Below are positions 1,207 through 38,789 of a stretch of 64,000 nt of DNA, in pieces. The stretch is from an uncultured Muribaculaceae bacterium (lineage in GTDB: Bacteria; Bacillota_I; Bacilli_A; RF39; UBA660). The notes below the pieces were generated by a model. The model was given only the letters and a program-made list of their open reading frames with translations, was not told where the DNA came from and ran no database searches. The position numbers were made by a program, and so were the translations under genes. The stretch is taken from positions 135,448 to 199,447 of the forward strand of contig CAYNFP010000001.1 of the NCBI GenBank assembly GCA_964396655.1. Direction: 5' to 3'. Positions within the stretch are counted from its first letter, which is position 1, and every line of letters starts with the position of its first letter.

Positions 1207-1261
1207 TTAAAATCATACTTGTATTAAGTATGATTTTTTGTTAACATAAAGGTGATAAAAT

Positions 1262-2911
1262 ATGAGAAATAAAAAAGGATTTACATTAATTGAATTATTA
1301 GCTGTAATAGCAGTATTAGGAATATTGATTGTTTTTGTTGTCCCTAAAGTAATAGATATATTTAATAATTCTAAGAGGCAATCATTTTTGGCTGATGTAA
1401 AGAGTGTATACAAAGCAGTAAATTTAAAAGTTCTAGAAAATGAAATAGATAACTCTGAATCCGAAATTTATGATTCAATTAATGAACCAATAGATATAAA
1501 TACTAAACTAGAATATAAAGCTATAATAACTGATAAAAAAGTTACTTATATTTGTGTGTCAAACGGAAAATATAAATTATATTCAAACACAATAGACTCT
1601 GCTGATGATATTACTATGAATGGTGTAGAAGAGGGAACCACTTGTGGAGTAACAGAAAACAGTTTTACAGTTGCTTATGATTGCAATGGTGGAACAGGTA
1701 CAACAGAATCAAGTACTCACTTATTTCATAAAGCTTCACCATTAACTGCCAATGCATGTTCTAATGTTCAGTCAGATAATTATTCTTTAGCTTTTAGAGG
1801 TTGGTCAACATCATCAACAGCTACAGATCCAACATATGATAATGAAGAGAATGTAGTTGATTTAACAAGCACTGTTAATGGTGTAATTAATCTTTATGCA
1901 GTATGGGAATATTCATATACTTATACAGTTGCTTATAGCTGTAACGGCGGAACAGGAACTGTTTCGAGTACAGCTCATAGATATAATGTATCAAAAGCTT
2001 TAGCAAATAATAATTGTTATAAAATTACCGAAGGTACTTCAGGTAATATAGGAGCATTCAAAGGTTGGTCAACATCATCAACCGCAACAAATCCAACGTA
2101 TACAGGAGGACAATCTGTAACTAATTTAACAAGCACAGAAAATGGAACAGTAACTCTTTATGCAGTGTGGGGTAATTTATTTGCTTATGCTGGAAGTTAT
2201 AATGTAATAGCAGATCCAAGCGGTTCTTCTAATTGGAAAATTAAAATATTATCCGGAAGTAACACAAGTTTCACTTTATCTGCTGCTGTTAATATAGAAG
2301 CTTTCTTAGTTGGTGGTGGAGGTGGCGGAGCAGATAATTATAGTTGGATAGGCGGCGGAGGCGGCGGAGGCGGTTATACCACATATGCTTCTTCGATAAA
2401 TTTAAGCGCTACAAGTTATTCAATTACTATAGGCTCTGGTGGAGGAGTTGCTTCAAATGGGGTAACAACCTCTGGTTTTGGCTATAGTGCATTAGGGGGA
2501 TATGGGGCAACGGGTCAACCCGGAGCAAACGGAGGCTCTGGTGGAGGTGCCGGAGGGCACAATGGTTCTCCTTCTACTGGAGGAAACGGAGGTTCTTATG
2601 GCGGAAACGGATATAATAATGCAAGAGGTAATTCTTCTGGTGGAACTGGTCAAGGAGCCACAGTATCAACAAATTCAACTTGTGAATTTAATCAAGGGAC
2701 TACTTCTGGATGTAATGCTGGAGTGACCGCTTATGCAGGCGGAGGCGGTGGCGGTGCCGGAATGTCTGGAGGAGAAGCTGGAACATCTGGGTCTGCTGGA
2801 GCTGGATGTGGCGGAACAAATACAGGTTGCGGTGGTCGAGGCGGAATTGGTGGAACTGGTGGAACTCAAAGTGGTATTGCAGGAATTATTGTAATTAGAA
2901 ATAAAAGGTAA
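1262..2911 (+). CDS. prepilin-type N-terminal cleavage/methylation protein with two Listeria-Bacteroides (Flg_new) repeats and a Gly-rich C-terminal tail
   Basis: N-terminus MRNKKGFTLIELLAVIAVLGILI is a class III signal peptide (G|FTLIE). There are two roughly 90-aa repeats (AYDCNGGTGT...F.GWSTSSTAT.PTY...LYAVW). The C-terminal 230 aa are dominated by G/S/N/T runs (GGGGGGxxxYSWIGGGGGGGG). Confidence 0.6.
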   Translation: MRNKKGFTLIELLAVIAVLGILIVFVVPKVIDIFNNSKRQSFLADVKSVYKAVNLKVLENEIDNSESEIYDSINEPIDINTKLEYKAIITDKKVTYICVSNGKYKLYSNTIDSADDITMNGVEEGTTCGVTENSFTVAYDCNGGTGTTESSTHLFHKASPLTANACSNVQSDNYSLAFRGWSTSSTATDPTYDNEENVVDLTSTVNGVINLYAVWEYSYTYTVAYSCNGGTGTVSSTAHRYNVSKALANNNCYKITEGTSGNIGAFKGWSTSSTATNPTYTGGQSVTNLTSTENGTVTLYAVWGNLFAYAGSYNVIADPSGSSNWKIKILSGSNTSFTLSAAVNIEAFLVGGGGGGADNYSWIGGGGGGGGYTTYASSINLSATSYSITIGSGGGVASNGVTTSGFGYSALGGYGATGQPGANGGSGGGAGGHNGSPSTGGNGGSYGGNGYNNARGNSSGGTGQGATVSTNSTCEFNQGTTSGCNAGVTAYAGGGGGGAGMSGGEAGTSGSAGAGCGGTNTGCGGRGGIGGTGGTQSGIAGIIVIRNKR

Positions 2912-2968: not shown

Positions 2969-3556
2969 ATGGAAATTACAAAAGTAGAAGAACCTATTAC
3001 TGCGGTTAGAATAACTCAATATCCCTTAGATAATAAAAATGAATTTTTAATTATAGGGAAAAGTAATGTAGGTAAAAGTAGTTTTATAAATACTTTATTA
3101 AATAGAAAGAATTTTGCAAGAACAAGTTCTAAACCGGGAAAAACTCAAACATTAAATTTTTATCATTGTAATGATAAATTTTATTTAATAGATGTTCCTG
3201 GATATGGTTTTTCTTCAGTATCTCATAAGTTACAGGAAAAATTTGGATTAATGATTGAAGAATATTTAAAAAACAGACCAAACTTAAAACATGTATTTTT
3301 ACTAGTTGATTATAGACATAAACCAGCAGAAAATGATTTATTAATGTATAATTTTCTAAAATATTATAATTTACCAGTTACCATAATATGTACTAAATAT
3401 GATAAAATTCAAAAGATGGGAAGAGAAAAGCAAGATAAGGTAATTAAAAGTATATTTGATATAGCTTTAGGAGATGAGATAGTTAATTTCTCTAGTGTAA
3501 CTAAAGTTGGAAAAGAAAGAGTATACGAAATAATAGATAGTTACCAAAATAATTAA
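2969..3556 (+). CDS. engB: ribosome biogenesis GTPase EngB/YsxC
   Basis: G1 motif GKSNVGKSSFINTLL, DVPGYGF and the KYDK G4 motif; 195 aa. Confidence 0.8.
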   Translation: MEITKVEEPITAVRITQYPLDNKNEFLIIGKSNVGKSSFINTLLNRKNFARTSSKPGKTQTLNFYHCNDKFYLIDVPGYGFSSVSHKLQEKFGLMIEEYLKNRPNLKHVFLLVDYRHKPAENDLLMYNFLKYYNLPVTIICTKYDKIQKMGREKQDKVIKSIFDIALGDEIVNFSSVTKVGKERVYEIIDSYQNN

Positions 3557-4962: not shown

Positions 4963-5202
4963 ATGAAAGACGATTTTTTTGATAAAATAGAAGAAAAAAC
5001 TAATATAAAGAAAGATACAATATTGGATTTAGCAAAAAAGTTACAAGAGGGTAATTTTAAAGATGATAATACTTTAAAAGAAATAATACATGAAATTAGT
5101 GATTTAACGGGTAAAGAAGTAAGTGAAGAAAAAGAAAAAAGGATTATAGATATGATTAAAAAGGATCAAGTGCCTTTAGATCCAGAAAAATATAAACTTT
5201 AA
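4963..5202 (+). CDS. SpoVIF (YjcC)-like small sporulation protein
   Basis: 79 aa; the pattern FFDKIEEKT..K.DILDLAK....NFKDD.T....I..IS.L.GK.VS.EKE..I matches the SpoVIF family. Confidence 0.4.
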   Translation: MKDDFFDKIEEKTNIKKDTILDLAKKLQEGNFKDDNTLKEIIHEISDLTGKEVSEEKEKRIIDMIKKDQVPLDPEKYKL

Positions 5203-6437
5203 TTTTTAAATTCTTTTTCTAACTTTCCAGTATTCCATAATATATTGTAATAAGTATTATTTATTACTAAATCAAATTCTCCAATATATTCATATACATT
5301 TGGATTAAAACTAAATTTAAAATCATTTAGTTTTTTATATGGGCTTTTTTCAGAAACATTTCCACTAACCGCATTTAAATCAATGAAACTATAACCCATC
5401 TTTTTATAATATTCAATAAATCTGTAATGTAAAAAATAATTTATATTTTGTTTGTTAAATTCAGAGTTTACTCCACTAATTATTAAATTTACTCTAGAAT
5501 TTTGTTTAATCATTAAAGCACCACCAATTATTTCACTTTTATTTCCGCTTTTTAATTTAGTATTTAATAAGTCAATTGAATGTTTTATTTCCGCTAATTT
5601 ATTATCTGAATTCATTTTATTTTGAAATAATATTTCATCTTGAGAATTATTATTAAATTCTTCATTTAATTCTTCATTTTCTATAATCATAGTTTCATAT
5701 TTTTTATTATATACTTCTAAATATTTATAATAATCAACTTCCACTAATAATAAATCAACCATATCACTGTCTTTAAATACTTTATAGAAATCCCCGTAAT
5801 ATGATTTTGTTTTATTAGATTTATCTTTTATTAAATCATAAAAAATATTAATATCTTTTTCGTTTCCAATTTTTAAAGATAAAGAAGAAGTTAAAAAAGA
5901 ATGAGATTTTTTATAACATTTTTCACTAACAGTATTTTTATCAAATTCTTTTAAATTTATAATTGCGTTATATTTAGGTAACATAGATTCAAAATATAAA
6001 TTGTTTTTTAACTTTTCATAACCAAATTTTCTCATTAATGATATTAAATTTTTATTATTAACATTTACAATTTTCTTTTTATTTTCATAATCTATTTTAG
6101 AATAAATAACTTCTGGATTTATTTTTATAAAAGCAAAATTTTTAAGCAAGAAAAATGCTTTTATTTTAGATGTGAATTCATTTAATAAATCTTCATCTAA
6201 ATAATTTATTAAAAAACCTCTAGGAGCATAACCATATTTAATAGTTGGTGCGATAGTTTTATATAATATTAAAGAAGCTCCTACTAATTTATTATATTTA
6301 TAGGCCCCTATATACATAATTTGATATTTAAAGTTTTGCATTAAAACACCATAATTTTCTGTTTGATAATAATTACTTAAAATATGATTGTTTGCAAATT
6401 CCATAAATGTTTTTGAATCAATTTCTTTAATAATCAT
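5199..6437 (-). CDS. FemAB-family peptidoglycan interpeptide-bridge aminoacyltransferase; start corrected to MIIKEIDSKTF
   Basis: Length and motifs (APRGFLI..., ...KINPEV) are consistent with the FemA/FemX fold. The corrected start at 6437 has a GGAGGT Shine-Dalgarno and removes the overlap with the divergent gene at 6530. Confidence 0.55.
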   Translation of the reverse strand: MIIKEIDSKTFMEFANNHILSNYYQTENYGVLMQNFKYQIMYIGAYKYNKLVGASLILYKTIAPTIKYGYAPRGFLINYLDEDLLNEFTSKIKAFFLLKNFAFIKINPEVIYSKIDYENKKKIVNVNNKNLISLMRKFGYEKLKNNLYFESMLPKYNAIINLKEFDKNTVSEKCYKKSHSFLTSSLSLKIGNEKDINIFYDLIKDKSNKTKSYYGDFYKVFKDSDMVDLLLVEVDYYKYLEVYNKKYETMIIENEELNEEFNNNSQDEILFQNKMNSDNKLAEIKHSIDLLNTKLKSGNKSEIIGGALMIKQNSRVNLIISGVNSEFNKQNINYFLHYRFIEYYKKMGYSFIDLNAVSGNVSEKSPYKKLNDFKFSFNPNVYEYIGEFDLVINNTYYNILWNTGKLEKEFKN

Positions 6438-6529
6438 GGCTACCTCCAAAACATAGGAAATATTATAACATATTTGACATATAAAATAAACAAAATTAGT
6501 AGTATAATTAAAATAGGATAGGTGATTGT

Positions 6530-7132
6530 ATGAAAGATATTTTAGATAAAATAAAATTAGAATCAAAAATTATTAATAAAAAGGATCTTTATATATTATT
6601 TGATAAACTTTTAAATAAAACAAAAAAATCATTTAATAAATTAGAAATCGAACAATATTATAAATGTGATATGGATGAAAATTATGAAAATTATATAAAT
6701 GGGAATTACGACGCATTAATAAAAGTATTTGACAATTTTTCTAAAGATTGGGCTTACACTATTAAAGATAATATAGAATTTAAAAGATTGCATTTAATAA
6801 ATAAACCAATTACCCAATATATAAATTATGAAATGTATTTTTATATGATAAATGAAAAAGCAGGAGAAAAAATAAAATGTTTAGATTTTGATAAATCAGG
6901 GATTAGATATGAAGAAGTATCTGATTTCATAATTTTTGATGATAACGAATTAATAATAAATTGCCATAATAAAGGAGAATATTTAAAATCATATTATTGT
7001 AATGATAAAGTTATGATAAGAAAATTATTAAAAGAATATGAAACCCTTTATTCAAAAGCTATAGATTATAAAAAAATAGTAAATTTAGATAAAAATTTAA
7101 TAACAAAAATGAAAGAAAATGGTTTGATTTAA
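6530..7132 (+). CDS. hypothetical protein
   Basis: 200-aa ORF in a coding-dense context, with AT-rich codon usage like its neighbours. Confidence 0.4.
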   Translation: MKDILDKIKLESKIINKKDLYILFDKLLNKTKKSFNKLEIEQYYKCDMDENYENYINGNYDALIKVFDNFSKDWAYTIKDNIEFKRLHLINKPITQYINYEMYFYMINEKAGEKIKCLDFDKSGIRYEEVSDFIIFDDNELIINCHNKGEYLKSYYCNDKVMIRKLLKEYETLYSKAIDYKKIVNLDKNLITKMKENGLI

Positions 7133-35522: not shown

Positions 35523-35573
35523 AAACGACAAATTATGTTTGTTGTTTTTTTTATAATTAAAAAAGGTGAAAAT

Positions 35574-36344
35574 ATGAAAATATATTTAGATTTATTATTT
35601 TTAATAAATTTTATATGTGACAGTTTAATTTTATTATCTGTTTCTATTATTTTAAGAAGAAATATTAAATTAAAAAGAATATTTTTGAGTGCTTTAATTG
35701 GATCTTTTAGTTTTTTTGTAATATTGATAAATATTAATCCAATTTTATTGTTTTTATTAAAATTAATTTTAGCTAGTATTATAGTTATAGTTTGTTTTAA
35801 ATATAAAAATATTAGATATTTTTTAAATAATTTATTATATTTTTTTATTAACAGTTTAATATTGGGGGGCTCTATTTATTTAATAAATTTAAAATTAGAT
35901 AATTTTGCTATTAAAAATGAATTATTATTTAATTTTATTATTTTAGTAATATTTAGTCCAGTTATTATATATATTTATATAAGGACATGTTTGAAACTTA
36001 AGAATGAATATTCATTAAGATACAAAGTAGATGTATATATAAATAGTAAAATAATTAATTTAAATGGATTTTATGATACCGGAAACACTTTAATTGACCC
36101 ATATAAAAGAAGAAGTGTTATCATAGTAGATAAAAAATATTTTGAAGGCATGAAATTAAATATATTATTAGTGCCTATTAATACAGTTAATGGAATATAT
36201 TTATTAGAATGTTTTAAGCCAGATGCTGTATATATTAAAGGAGTAGGTATTAAATATAATTTATTAATTGGAATGAGTGAGGATGAAATATGTATTGAAG
36301 GAATAGACTGTCTATTAAATAAAAGAATATTGGAGGATTTATGA
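35574..36344 (+). CDS. spoIIGA: sigma-E processing peptidase SpoIIGA
   Basis: N-terminus MKIYLDLLFLINFICDSLILL, five TM helices, and the aspartic-protease motif FYDTGNTLIDP. The position immediately upstream of sigE is the conserved one. Confidence 0.8.
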   Translation: MKIYLDLLFLINFICDSLILLSVSIILRRNIKLKRIFLSALIGSFSFFVILININPILLFLLKLILASIIVIVCFKYKNIRYFLNNLLYFFINSLILGGSIYLINLKLDNFAIKNELLFNFIILVIFSPVIIYIYIRTCLKLKNEYSLRYKVDVYINSKIINLNGFYDTGNTLIDPYKRRSVIIVDKKYFEGMKLNILLVPINTVNGIYLLECFKPDAVYIKGVGIKYNLLIGMSEDEICIEGIDCLLNKRILEDL

Positions 36345-37021
36345 ATATAAAGGATTTGTTTAGAAAATTAATAGGAAATAATATATATTACGTTGGAAGT
36401 TCAGATATTTTGCCTCCTCCTTTACCAAAAGCTGAAGAAGAAGCACTTGTTTTGTTGAGTGAAAAAGGTGATAAAAAAGCTAGAAATAAATTAGTTGAAC
36501 ACAATCTTAGATTAGTAGTATTTTTATCAAAGAAATATGATAATACCGGTTATGATTTAGAAGATTTAGTAAGTATTGGAACCATAGGTTTAATTAAGGG
36601 AGTAAACACATATAAATTAGATAAAAATATAAAACTTGCTACATATGCATCAAGGTGTATTGATAATGAAATATTAATGTTTTTAAGAAAAAATAAAAGA
36701 AAAAAAATAGAAGTTAGTTTTGAAGATTCAATAAATTTTGATGGAGAAGGAAATGAGTTACATTTAGAGGATGTTTTGGGAACTGAGAGTGATATGATTG
36801 AGAAAGAATATGAGTTTATTGTTGATAAAAGTATACTACTTGGTGAAATAAATAAATTAAATGACAGAGATAAAGAAATAATAATTATGAGATATGGTTT
36901 AATGAACGCTAAAGAATATACTCAAAAAGAAGTAGCAGAAAAATTAGGGATAAGCCAGTCATATATATCGAGAATTGAAAAAAAAGTTATAAAGAGATTA
37001 TCTAACTTATTAAAAGTATAA
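36341..37021 (+). CDS. sigE: sporulation sigma factor SigE (pro-sigma-E)
   Basis: Pro-sequence plus YYVGSSDILPPPL, sigma-70 regions 2 and 4 (TYASRCIDNEI, KEVAEKLGISQSYISRIEKK). Confidence 0.85.
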   Translation: MNIKDLFRKLIGNNIYYVGSSDILPPPLPKAEEEALVLLSEKGDKKARNKLVEHNLRLVVFLSKKYDNTGYDLEDLVSIGTIGLIKGVNTYKLDKNIKLATYASRCIDNEILMFLRKNKRKKIEVSFEDSINFDGEGNELHLEDVLGTESDMIEKEYEFIVDKSILLGEINKLNDRDKEIIIMRYGLMNAKEYTQKEVAEKLGISQSYISRIEKKVIKRLSNLLKV

Positions 37022-37094: not shown

Positions 37095-38789
37095 ATGAAA
37101 AATAAAGATATAGATAATGAAGAATATAGAGATTTAGAAGAACATAGATTATCAGTATTAAAAAGAACAGGAATTATAATTTTAGTTATTTTAGGTATAA
37201 TGATTATTTTCTTGTTTTTAAAAAGTTGTACTAAAACAGAGGATAATGATTTAAGTAAAACATTATTAGAAGCTGGTAAAGAATATTATGAATATAATGA
37301 GCATTTACTTCCGACAGCGGTAGGAGATTGCAAAAATGTTACTTTAACAACATTATCACAAGAAGGATTAATAAATAAAGCTAAGTATGCTGATTGTGGT
37401 AATGATAGTACATATGTAAAAGTTTGTAAGTTAGAAAGTGGTAAATATCATTTTGTAGCAATAATGGATTGTGTTAATGAAAAAACAGATGATTTATATG
37501 GAAGTTGGAAAGAAGGAACTGAAAAAGATATTATTTCTGATTCTTCTGATATAAAATTTTTCTTCCAAGTTCAATATTTGGATACAACTAATGCAAATGT
37601 AGGAAATAGTGAAGAATATTGGGAAGATGAGATTCCATATTCAAAATATAAAACAGAAGCTGTAACTAAGTATTATAGATATAAAGATTTGCAATATATT
37701 TGGAATATTACATCTAAAAGATATTATCCAGGGGATGCTACAAGCATAGCGAATATAAAAGAATATTATATAACTTCACCAAGTGCTGATTATAAATATA
37801 AAGATAATGAAAATACTAAAGTATCAAAATATTTTAGTACAACAGAAGGAAAAATATATTGGGTAGATGAAAGTGGAAACCGTAACTTTGCTTTAACAGC
37901 CCCAGATAACGTTTATATTTATCCAGATAATCCTGTTTATCAAACAGGATATGCAACCAGAGTATGGACTGAAACATCTAAGCCTGTAACAGCGGATTCC
38001 ACTCAATTTTGGTATTGTTCAAGCCCAAATGATGAGAATCAAATAAGATCAACTGTGCCATGTGAAAATAACGTTAATAATTACACAATAACAGAAAGAA
38101 TGATATATTCTTGTGATGGAGGCCTTACTGAAGTAGGCCAAAATGGCGTATGTTATCAATGTACTGATGGCAAAGGTTTAAGAACTGATAGAAGTTCTTG
38201 TGGATATTATAGTGATTATGGGAATTATAGTAAAACTCCTTGTGATACTTCATCTGATTTATGTACAACTAAAATATTTACTGCATATCAATGGTATAAA
38301 TTAGTTGATGGTGAAAGGAAGTATTATCCAAGTAATTCTACTACTGCTTCAGGTGAGAAAACATATTATGGAGAATCTCCAGTAACAAGTCTTATTAAAG
38401 ATGTAACAACCACAACTACCGGATGGAAATGGTATAAAAAGTTGGATACTGAGACTACAAGTTATTATTCAACATCTCCTCAAACAGGAGCAACTAAAAC
38501 AGATACAAGTAGATGGACTGACTTCACAAAATGGTCAACTGCGGTACCTCAAAGTTTGGGTTCTGAAGGGACAAGGATGATTGAAACAAGAAATAAAATT
38601 AAATTGAAACAAATAACAGGAGATACTGATAGTTGGTTAAATTATAATGAAAAATATATGGAGTTAGATTCAATATTAACTTCACTTCAAGCTAAAGGTT
38701 ACAAAGTTTATTCACTTGATGATATAACATCTAGTGGCGAATTAAAATATAAAGTAAAGTTATTTGTTAGAAACAAGGAAGTGGAATAA
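37095..38789 (+). CDS. membrane-anchored protein with a large Cys/Tyr/Trp/Thr-rich extracytoplasmic domain
   Basis: N-in TM (GIIILVILGIMIIFLFL), then about 520 aa with at least 20 Cys and abundant Y/W/T. Overlaps the next gene by 1 nt (TAATG). Confidence 0.5.
   Translation: MKNKDIDNEEYRDLEEHRLSVLKRTGIIILVILGIMIIFLFLKSCTKTEDNDLSKTLLEAGKEYYEYNEHLLPTAVGDCKNVTLTTLSQEGLINKAKYADCGNDSTYVKVCKLESGKYHFVAIMDCVNEKTDDLYGSWKEGTEKDIISDSSDIKFFFQVQYLDTTNANVGNSEEYWEDEIPYSKYKTEAVTKYYRYKDLQYIWNITSKRYYPGDATSIANIKEYYITSPSADYKYKDNENTKVSKYFSTTEGKIYWVDESGNRNFALTAPDNVYIYPDNPVYQTGYATRVWTETSKPVTADSTQFWYCSSPNDENQIRSTVPCENNVNNYTITERMIYSCDGGLTEVGQNGVCYQCTDGKGLRTDRSSCGYYSDYGNYSKTPCDTSSDLCTTKIFTAYQWYKLVDGERKYYPSNSTTASGEKTYYGESPVTSLIKDVTTTTTGWKWYKKLDTETTSYYSTSPQTGATKTDTSRWTDFTKWSTAVPQSLGSEGTRMIETRNKIKLKQITGDTDSWLNYNEKYMELDSILTSLQAKGYKVYSLDDITSSGELKYKVKLFVRNKEVE

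Follow-up and report, generated by a model that had tools for sequence, protein, structure and literature searches.

What could be the function of a gut bacterial gene that joins a prepilin-like leader to a long glycine-rich C terminus and lies among housekeeping genes? This question is raised by the open reading frame (ORF) at 1262..2911 (+) of the window, by which we mean the whole 64-kb stretch of the 202-kb contig CAYNFP010000001.1 (assembly GCA_964396655.1, from an uncultured bacterium) analysed here. The product has 549 amino acids (aa) and begins MRNKKGFTLIELLAVIAVLG. An initial annotation, made from the sequence alone, had described it as an orphan prepilin-like protein with two Listeria-Bacteroides-type repeats and a low-complexity tail, and had suggested a minor pilin adapted as an adhesin, a competence pseudopilin, or a non-pilus use of the prepilin leader. 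Based on sequence comparison and structure prediction, the gene probably encodes a modular type IV pilin, and the protein would be an adhesin displayed on a pilus. The architecture is that of a modular pilin, with a class III pilin motif (PF07963) combined in one polypeptide with non-pilus domains, namely B-repeats and a Gly_rich_2 (PF21722) domain.

A type IV pilin module at the N terminus

The N terminus is that of a type IV pilin. The product, whose opening residues are MRNKKGFTLIELLAVIAVLGILIVFVVPK, starts with a short, basic leader that has Gly at position −1 (MRNKKG, 1262..1279), followed by Phe at +1, Glu at +5, and about 20 hydrophobic residues (FTLIELLAVIAVLGILIVFVV). This region scores above the curated cut-offs of PF07963 (32.9 versus 21.2 bits) and TIGR02532 (30.6 versus 16.3), which bears out the prepilin signal G|FTLIE proposed in the initial annotation. 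KGFTLIELL is conserved in the homologues, and the motif is the sole class III-like motif in the six frames of the window. Cleavage is predicted after Gly6, which would leave Phe as the new N terminus. In the AlphaFold2 (AF2) model built on the homologue alignment (mean predicted local distance difference test, pLDDT, 86), the α1 segment (residues 7–63; 1280..1450), whose N-terminal half is hydrophobic and which has Glu as residue 5 of the mature form, is helical over residues 9–63 (pLDDT ~84–88), a helix of ~55 residues. This extended helix packs on the β-sheet of a globular head (residues 64–132; 1451..1657), in which a low-confidence loop (64–74) is followed by a small antiparallel sheet with strands at 84–90, 93–100, 104–108, and 122–124. 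The predicted arrangement is the type IV pilin fold.

The pilin module is generic in sequence. Equivalog models remained far below their cut-offs (GspG, 40.7 versus 88.85; ComGC, 30.4 versus 75; ComGE, 23.1 versus 49; ComGD, 21.3 versus 70), and the alignments to these and to other models, PilA included, do not extend past the N-terminal helix. The protein therefore contains a generic type IV pilin module rather than an identifiable subunit of a competence (Com) pilus or a type II secretion system (T2SS), and the earlier suggestion of a competence pseudopilin finds no support in these models, ComGF among them. We consider it improbable that the protein is a minor pilin of a Com pilus, in which the glycine-rich module would help DNA capture or docking on donor cells. 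The weak N-terminal matches to the ComGC, ComGD, ComGE, and ComGF models would agree with such a role, and no type IV filaments are as widespread among monoderm bacteria as Com pili (PMC7212644). However, those matches align the generic α1 helix only, no comG operon is adjacent to the gene, the ATPases of related metagenome-assembled genomes (MAGs) are PilB/GspE-like in size (450–505 aa), and the fold relatives of the C-terminal cargo bind cell-surface receptors, not DNA.

Two B-repeats and a folded glycine-rich domain

Between the pilin head and the glycine-rich region lies a tandem duplication of residues 133–218 (1658..1915) and 219–305 (1916..2176), whose two units are 52% identical (E 1e-27). 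Both are of the InlB or Listeria-Bacteroides type; the first contains two Cys (CNGG...C), and the second is modelled at a pLDDT of 93–98. The predicted structure has the B-repeat fold of PF09479/PF18998-type repeats, and in the family test with PF09479 and PF18998 the Listeria-Bacteroides repeat model matched two stretches at 19.0 bits, under the gathering threshold of 27. The two repeats of the initial annotation are thus supported by the duplication and the fold, with a Pfam score below threshold. Compared with the 72-residue solved InlB B-repeat, the repeats here are about 15 residues longer and have a conserved Cys pair.

The C-terminal region (residues 306–549; 2177..2908) contains 32% Gly, includes GGGGGGADNYSWIGGGGGGGGYT, and drops in local sequence entropy to 2.2–2.9 bits. 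The initial annotation was right about this composition and wrong in treating the region as a low-complexity tail of variable length. Gly_rich_2 matches residues 337–546 over positions 8–224 of its 226-position profile (32.5 bits versus a gathering threshold of 24.3), and the same match is precomputed for the identical protein. Conservation was taken from alignments of 78 full-length homologues and 33 excised domains. Of the alignment columns of the domain, 19 are invariant and about 33 nearly so, and its conservation is position-specific and includes non-Gly residues: W325, F348, V350, T373, Y386, S426, T473-x-E475-F476, Y491, N520, and the terminal G-I-x-x-I-R. The strand at the extreme C terminus, GIIVIRNKR, is conserved. 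The size of the domain is nearly constant in the homologues, mostly 226–260 aa. The AF2 model, a tumour necrosis factor (TNF)-like β-sandwich with a polyglycine bundle, reaches a pLDDT of 93–98 over most of the region, with a dip to ~71–84 near residues 461–490. On the evidence of the alignments and the model, the C terminus is a defined, conserved, and folded domain, and "low-complexity" describes its composition only.

It is highly unlikely that this region is instead an intrinsically disordered Gly/Ser/Asn tail, for example a length-variable spacer spanning the cell wall. The Gly content, the low entropy, and short GGN runs in the DNA are what such a tail would display, but the full-length Pfam match, the conserved columns at non-Gly positions, the near-constant length in most homologues, a pLDDT of ~95, and the lack of a long tandem repeat in the DNA contradict it. 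Tail length and repeat number, which the initial annotation proposed to compare across strains, are not the informative variables; the domain hardly changes in length, and repeat number is the wrong quantity to follow. The features that do vary are how many B-repeats and how many whole glycine-rich domains (1–6) a protein has, and the loops between the Gly motifs.

An origin of the tail as an assembly artefact or by tandem-repeat expansion is ruled out. The identical protein is present on three contigs from independent NCBI and Logan assemblies, an orthologue with 62% identity carries the same glycine-rich tail, and Tandem Repeats Finder detected short GGN runs (≤27 nt) and no long tandem array in the DNA of the gene. 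The tail is thus reproducible as well as conserved. The guanine-plus-cytosine (GC) content of 0.48–0.51 at 2250–2850 versus a background of ~0.25 (0.247 across the whole window) agrees with the GC-rich island noted before, and it arises because the gene has 100 GGN codons. GGA and GGT account for 78 of the 100 Gly codons, which is the AT-ending choice expected of the host and represents native codon usage.

A fold shared with phage receptor-binding proteins

The glycine-rich domain is structurally related to phage tail proteins. The top two Foldseek matches were phage Bxb1 gp33 and Pam3 gp24, indicating a shared fold for Gly_rich_2. When used as a single sequence, the tail had no match among PDB sequences, and the domain profile gave a marginal match to Pam3 gp24 (E ~1.2) with VGGGGxG...GGGGGxG motifs in common; such marginal profile matches become convincing only when the fold comparison is added. 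Predicted viral structures matching at E ≤ 1e-3 numbered 161, mostly annotated as "glycine-rich domain-containing" or tail proteins, from gut sipho- and myoviruses, cyanophages, and prasinoviruses. PHROG 2295, a family of unknown function, matches residues 303–546. As modelled, the β-sandwich and polyglycine bundle fold like the distal domains with which the tail proteins Bxb1 gp33 and Pam3 gp24 recognise receptors.

The phage relatives include the gp33 "tail wing brush" of mycobacteriophage Bxb1 (9D93), the tail fibre gp24 of cyanophage Pam3 (7YPX/7YFW), and gp38 of Salmonella phage S16 and the T-even phages, although S16 gp38 itself was absent among the matches listed. The phage glycine-rich domain has been described as resembling the ALK domain and S16 gp38; its twelve Gly-rich motifs stack into a lattice whose stem is conserved and whose distal tip varies (PMC9608196). 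The Pam3 and Bxb1 gp33/gp29 domains were classed in 2026 as polyproline-II/polyglycine helical bundles (PMC13243192). In the family studied here, the Gly motifs are conserved and the loops that separate them are variable and rich in indels, the same alternation that was described for T-even gp38 adhesins (PMC3157838). In our protein, the variable loops are residues 337–344, 357–364, 395–399, 430–439, 451–459, 468–472, 482–488, 499–506, and 528–537. The phage proteins differ in being virion components joined by N-terminal helices, trimeric in Pam3, whereas the domain here follows a pilin and B-repeats and is encoded on a cellular chromosome. The glycine-rich domain of the animal receptor kinases ALK and LTK (PF12810; 7LRZ, 7LIR, 7NX1), which bind protein cytokines, is alike in fold only, and our protein has no PF12810 match at E ≤ 1.

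These relationships could mean that the gene is a phage or prophage tail-fibre (receptor-binding) gene within the chromosome, since the best structural relatives and many sequence relatives of its C-terminal domain are phage proteins and short stand-alone forms in high-GC Clostridia resemble proteins of viral contigs. The chance of this is very remote. The gene has no phage flanks, its neighbours being nrnA-like, engB, der, ackA, and rnhB genes, and homologous loci are alike in this respect; the N terminus is a pilin and not a fibre-attachment helix bundle; and codon usage is native, with low GC outside the Gly codons.

Stand-alone forms of 210–340 aa occur in high-GC Christensenellales and Oscillospiraceae, and since their N termini recur on viral contigs, these short forms are probably prophage proteins. 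A set of short high-GC forms (~310–360 aa; L021, L047, L059, L060, L063; P0107, P0109) has the N terminus GG(T/S)GGTLTVTAP.G..VTV.KDGKT.TK in common with a viral contig protein, and its members probably belong to prophage tails in Oscillospiraceae and other Clostridia, judging from this shared sequence.

Pilus display or pilus-independent anchoring

The pilin signature is widely conserved in the family. A database search retrieved 389 homologues, with mostly low-GC Bacilli gut MAGs among the top matches. A class III-like N terminus ([KR]G[FL]TLIEL...; G−1/E+5) is present in 72 of the best 120 of these homologues, and several further members of the 120 are start-truncated calls of the same type; the N terminus is therefore not a plain transmembrane anchor whose homologues lack the signature. 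G−1/E+5 is kept in some homologues that are only ~30–35% identical overall to the query, and this conservation across distant homologues is an argument that peptidase processing and filament assembly are under selection. Among species-representative genomes, those with the long fused forms are low-GC (0.25–0.31) gut MAGs that carry the label Bacilli, "Tenericutes", or Clostridium and often have several loci each. An exhaustive phmmer search with the domain alone detected 698 representative clusters at E ≤ 1e-3, and in these the domain occurs in 1–6 copies, nearly always at the C terminus.

Several observations weigh against display on a pilus. No T2SSE, T2SSF, or A24 peptidase gene was detected in the stretch that begins 7.6 kb upstream and runs through the gene to the window end ~61 kb downstream, by Pfam searches of all non-nested ORFs of at least 100 aa and phmmer with Escherichia coli GspE, HofB, GspF, HofC, and GspO in the window, and by precomputed Pfam annotation in the upstream 7.6 kb. 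The absence of pilus assembly genes nearby, as stated in the initial annotation, is thus borne out, and the assembly machinery has to be assumed to be encoded elsewhere in the source genome. In close paralogue-like proteins of related MAGs, the same B-repeat and glycine-rich cargo stands behind TasA/SipW-like "..AYF.." or plain signal anchors, so the cargo needs no pilus to work. In phages, moreover, the domain works in trimeric fibres, and a lone copy on a pilin might bind too weakly to be useful.

The main rival is therefore a pilus-independent surface protein, in which the prepilin-type N terminus would be a pseudopilin-like stub serving, with or without cleavage, as export signal and membrane anchor only, and would keep the B-repeat stalk and the glycine-rich binding domain on the cell surface outside any extended filament. 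We rate this non-pilus use of the prepilin leader, already envisaged in the initial annotation, as a live but minority possibility. The missing machinery, the scattering of the genes among housekeeping genes rather than in pilus operons, and the apparently interchangeable N termini of relatives favour it. In contrast, strict G−1, F/L+1, and E+5 positions in distant homologues are hard to explain for a mere anchor, E+5 of type IV pilins being tied to filament assembly; a complete pilin head is kept beyond the transmembrane helix; and related MAGs keep a PilB-type ATPase.

In some family members with the same glycine-rich C terminus (L033, L043, L049, L056, L030, L044; P0015, P0053, P0058), the signal sequences end in motifs such as GYSLSFF, SYATFT, TYAYFT, or SLAYYNW. 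We take these endings to be reminiscent of TasA/camelysin (SipW-type) signals, which would give this cargo a different route to a fibre or an anchor.

The genomic context of the homologues gives the missing machinery a different weight. The 7.6 kb upstream of the gene encode rplS, signal peptidase I, a GNAT protein, a HIT protein, a YlqF-like GTPase, RNase HII, acetate kinase, and a DHH protein (the adjacent DHH/DHHA1 gene is nrnA-like), and the downstream genes include engB, der, a FemAB protein gene, enolase, dnaE, cdsA, and rseP. The homologue loci examined are likewise non-syntenic and lie among unrelated housekeeping genes: P0011 between efp and an ABC transporter, P0094 between thymidine kinase and ppdK, and P0110 after trigger factor and before a 962-aa paralogue. 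Two small orphan N_methyl pilin genes (148 and 157 aa; L002 7032–7968, between gyrA and an AP endonuclease gene) lie about 2 kb upstream of P0011. Lone PilB/GspE-type ATPase genes (PF00437, 408–414 bits) occur in two related low-GC Bacilli MAGs (L041 14926–16446 (−) and L046 6144–7499 (−)), flanked by genes for a P-type ATPase and DUF1846, recD2, and gap, and that of L041 is 4.2 kb from a modular pilin gene. Both ATPases match E. coli GspE at E ~1e-103 to 1e-107. These genes were missed by the motif G[PSAQ]TGSGK[ST] and found by phmmer with GspE/HofB, and motif negatives were not relied on. No platform or peptidase gene was found in the homologue loci by phmmer with E. coli GspF, HofC, and GspO, which is weak evidence given how distant these queries are. 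Pilus-gene dispersal thus appears to be the rule in these genomes and "orphan" pilin genes the norm, so that missing neighbours say little about the existence of a pilus. The isolation implied by "orphan" is real; it is no peculiarity of this gene, as the homologues examined and the ATPases of the two related MAGs are equally scattered.

A possible route to pilus-mediated adhesion

If the protein is a modular pilin, as we favour, its hydrophobic N-terminal half of α1 (α1N) would insert it into the membrane, and a prepilin peptidase encoded elsewhere would cut after Gly6 and methylate Phe. ATPase and platform machinery, also encoded elsewhere, would build the pilin module into a type IV filament, either a type IV pilus or a Com-like filament. 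With about 420 residues of cargo on a pilin of about 125 residues, a position at the filament tip, or a sparse one along the filament with the cargo outward, is most likely, and the protein would probably be a minor pilin. The B-repeats may act as a spacer stalk, and the glycine-rich domain may bind a ligand through the variable loops between its conserved Gly motifs. The most likely ligand is a glycan or protein on the surface of other microbes or of the host mucosa, and the pilus would thus mediate adhesion. The initial annotation's minor pilin with an adhesin role thereby gains support, as the protein is of the prepilin type and its C-terminal part is most plausibly an adhesin.

In L006 (10001–15104), two paralogous genes for pilin, B-repeat, and Gly_rich_2 proteins of 660 and 962 aa lie in tandem after a trigger factor gene, and several other MAGs have 2–3 family loci, which suggests a multigene family. 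A broader proposal, which we regard as rather improbable, is that uncultured low-GC gut Bacilli keep a multigene family of type IV pilins whose tips bear phage-exchanged receptor-binding domains. These would recognise surface structures of other bacteria, ligands of the class that phages also target, for cell-cell attachment, targeted DNA capture, or decoy and competition against phages for receptors, and not for adhesion to host tissue.

Relation to known modular pilins

Like Streptococcus sanguinis PilB (with a von Willebrand factor A module) and PilC (with a lectin module) and CofB of enterotoxigenic E. coli, the protein combines a small class III pilin module with bulky non-pilus domains and is predicted to act as a filament-presented adhesin. 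The S. sanguinis pilB and pilC genes lie within the pil locus, whereas the gene studied here lies outside such a locus. Modular pilins, whose small pilin module bears a functional module grafted onto it for presentation by the filament, probably at its tip, were defined by Raynaud et al. in 2021 from S. sanguinis PilB, a demonstrated adhesin, and more than 1,200 proteins with 264 architectures have been catalogued (PMC8179133). Dataset S1 of that survey lists nine proteins with the architecture IPR012902-IPR013378-IPR013378, that is, a pilin with two Listeria-Bacteroides repeats (PMC8179133). The terminal module here differs in being a Gly_rich_2/polyglycine bundle, which has no signature in the survey. 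Our literature searches returned nothing on PF21722 or Gly_rich_2 and nothing relevant to a polyglycine domain on a pilin. The modular-pilin kind and the pilin plus two-repeat architecture are therefore already known, and a Gly_rich_2 domain on a pilin is an undescribed variant rather than a new kind of system.

The variant overturns no expectation about type IV filaments, and its interest lies in the cargo. Polyglycine-bundle domains are rare in solved structures and have so far been discussed for phage host recognition and ALK/LTK ligand binding; with Gly_rich_2 on type IV pilins, the modular-pilin repertoire would gain a new class of cargo, and the finding suggests that domains move between phage receptor-binding proteins and bacterial adhesins. 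Dozens of protein clusters contain the fused pilin and glycine-rich form; most come from uncultured low-GC gut Bacilli, often with several paralogues per genome. Residues 306–549 are an expressible candidate for learning what these uncultured gut bacteria attach to. For annotation, a glycine-rich, GC-skewed "tail" in an AT-rich genome is best compared with PF21722 and PF12810 before it is called low complexity.

Flanking DNA and other features of the window

The intergenic region upstream of the pilin gene (1207..1261, +) contains a terminator-like element, a weak promoter match, and a Shine-Dalgarno sequence. A 12-bp AU-rich hairpin with a U-run at ~1210–1240, directly 3′ of the DHH/DHHA1 gene (folding energy −12 kcal/mol; z −2.69 versus shuffles), is a putative transcription terminator, and the pilin gene would thus need its own promoter or read-through. 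The −35/−10 match at 1207–1234 is weak (9/12) and not above the level in shuffled sequence. The Shine-Dalgarno sequence AAGGTGA at 1249–1255, 6 nt ahead of the ATG, is a strong ribosome-binding site. The gene ends with TAA at 2909..2911 (+), followed by a 57-nt spacer with a TTGCCT-17-TATAAT match and then an engB/ysxC-like gene (2969–3556).

The window includes spoIIGA-sigE (35.5–37.0 kb), sigG (41.6–42.3 kb), and SpoVIF (4963–5202), and the source organism is a low-GC, endospore-forming member of the Bacillota, probably of the class Bacilli. Two large ORFs of 564 and 811 aa, without a Pfam match at E ≤ 0.01, lie at 37095–41224 between spoIIGA-sigE (35535–37021) and the sigG-like gene (41552–42325). 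In Bacillus subtilis, spoIIGA-sigE and sigG are adjacent.

Fic/DOC-domain proteins are encoded in the window (18820–19707) and near the ATPase gene in L046 (9816–10343), which is probably a coincidence. As mechanical ORFs, the FemAB-family gene (5199–6566, −) and a DUF6879 gene (6530–7132, +) overlap head-to-head by 37 nt; the FemAB Pfam match begins at residue 49, so the true FemAB start is probably further in. A 738-aa ORF at 60216–62432 consists in part of repeated "...NTTINGG/F.NL..." units with a weak pentapeptide-repeat match (E 1.3e-3), and from its sequence it may encode another repeat-built surface protein.

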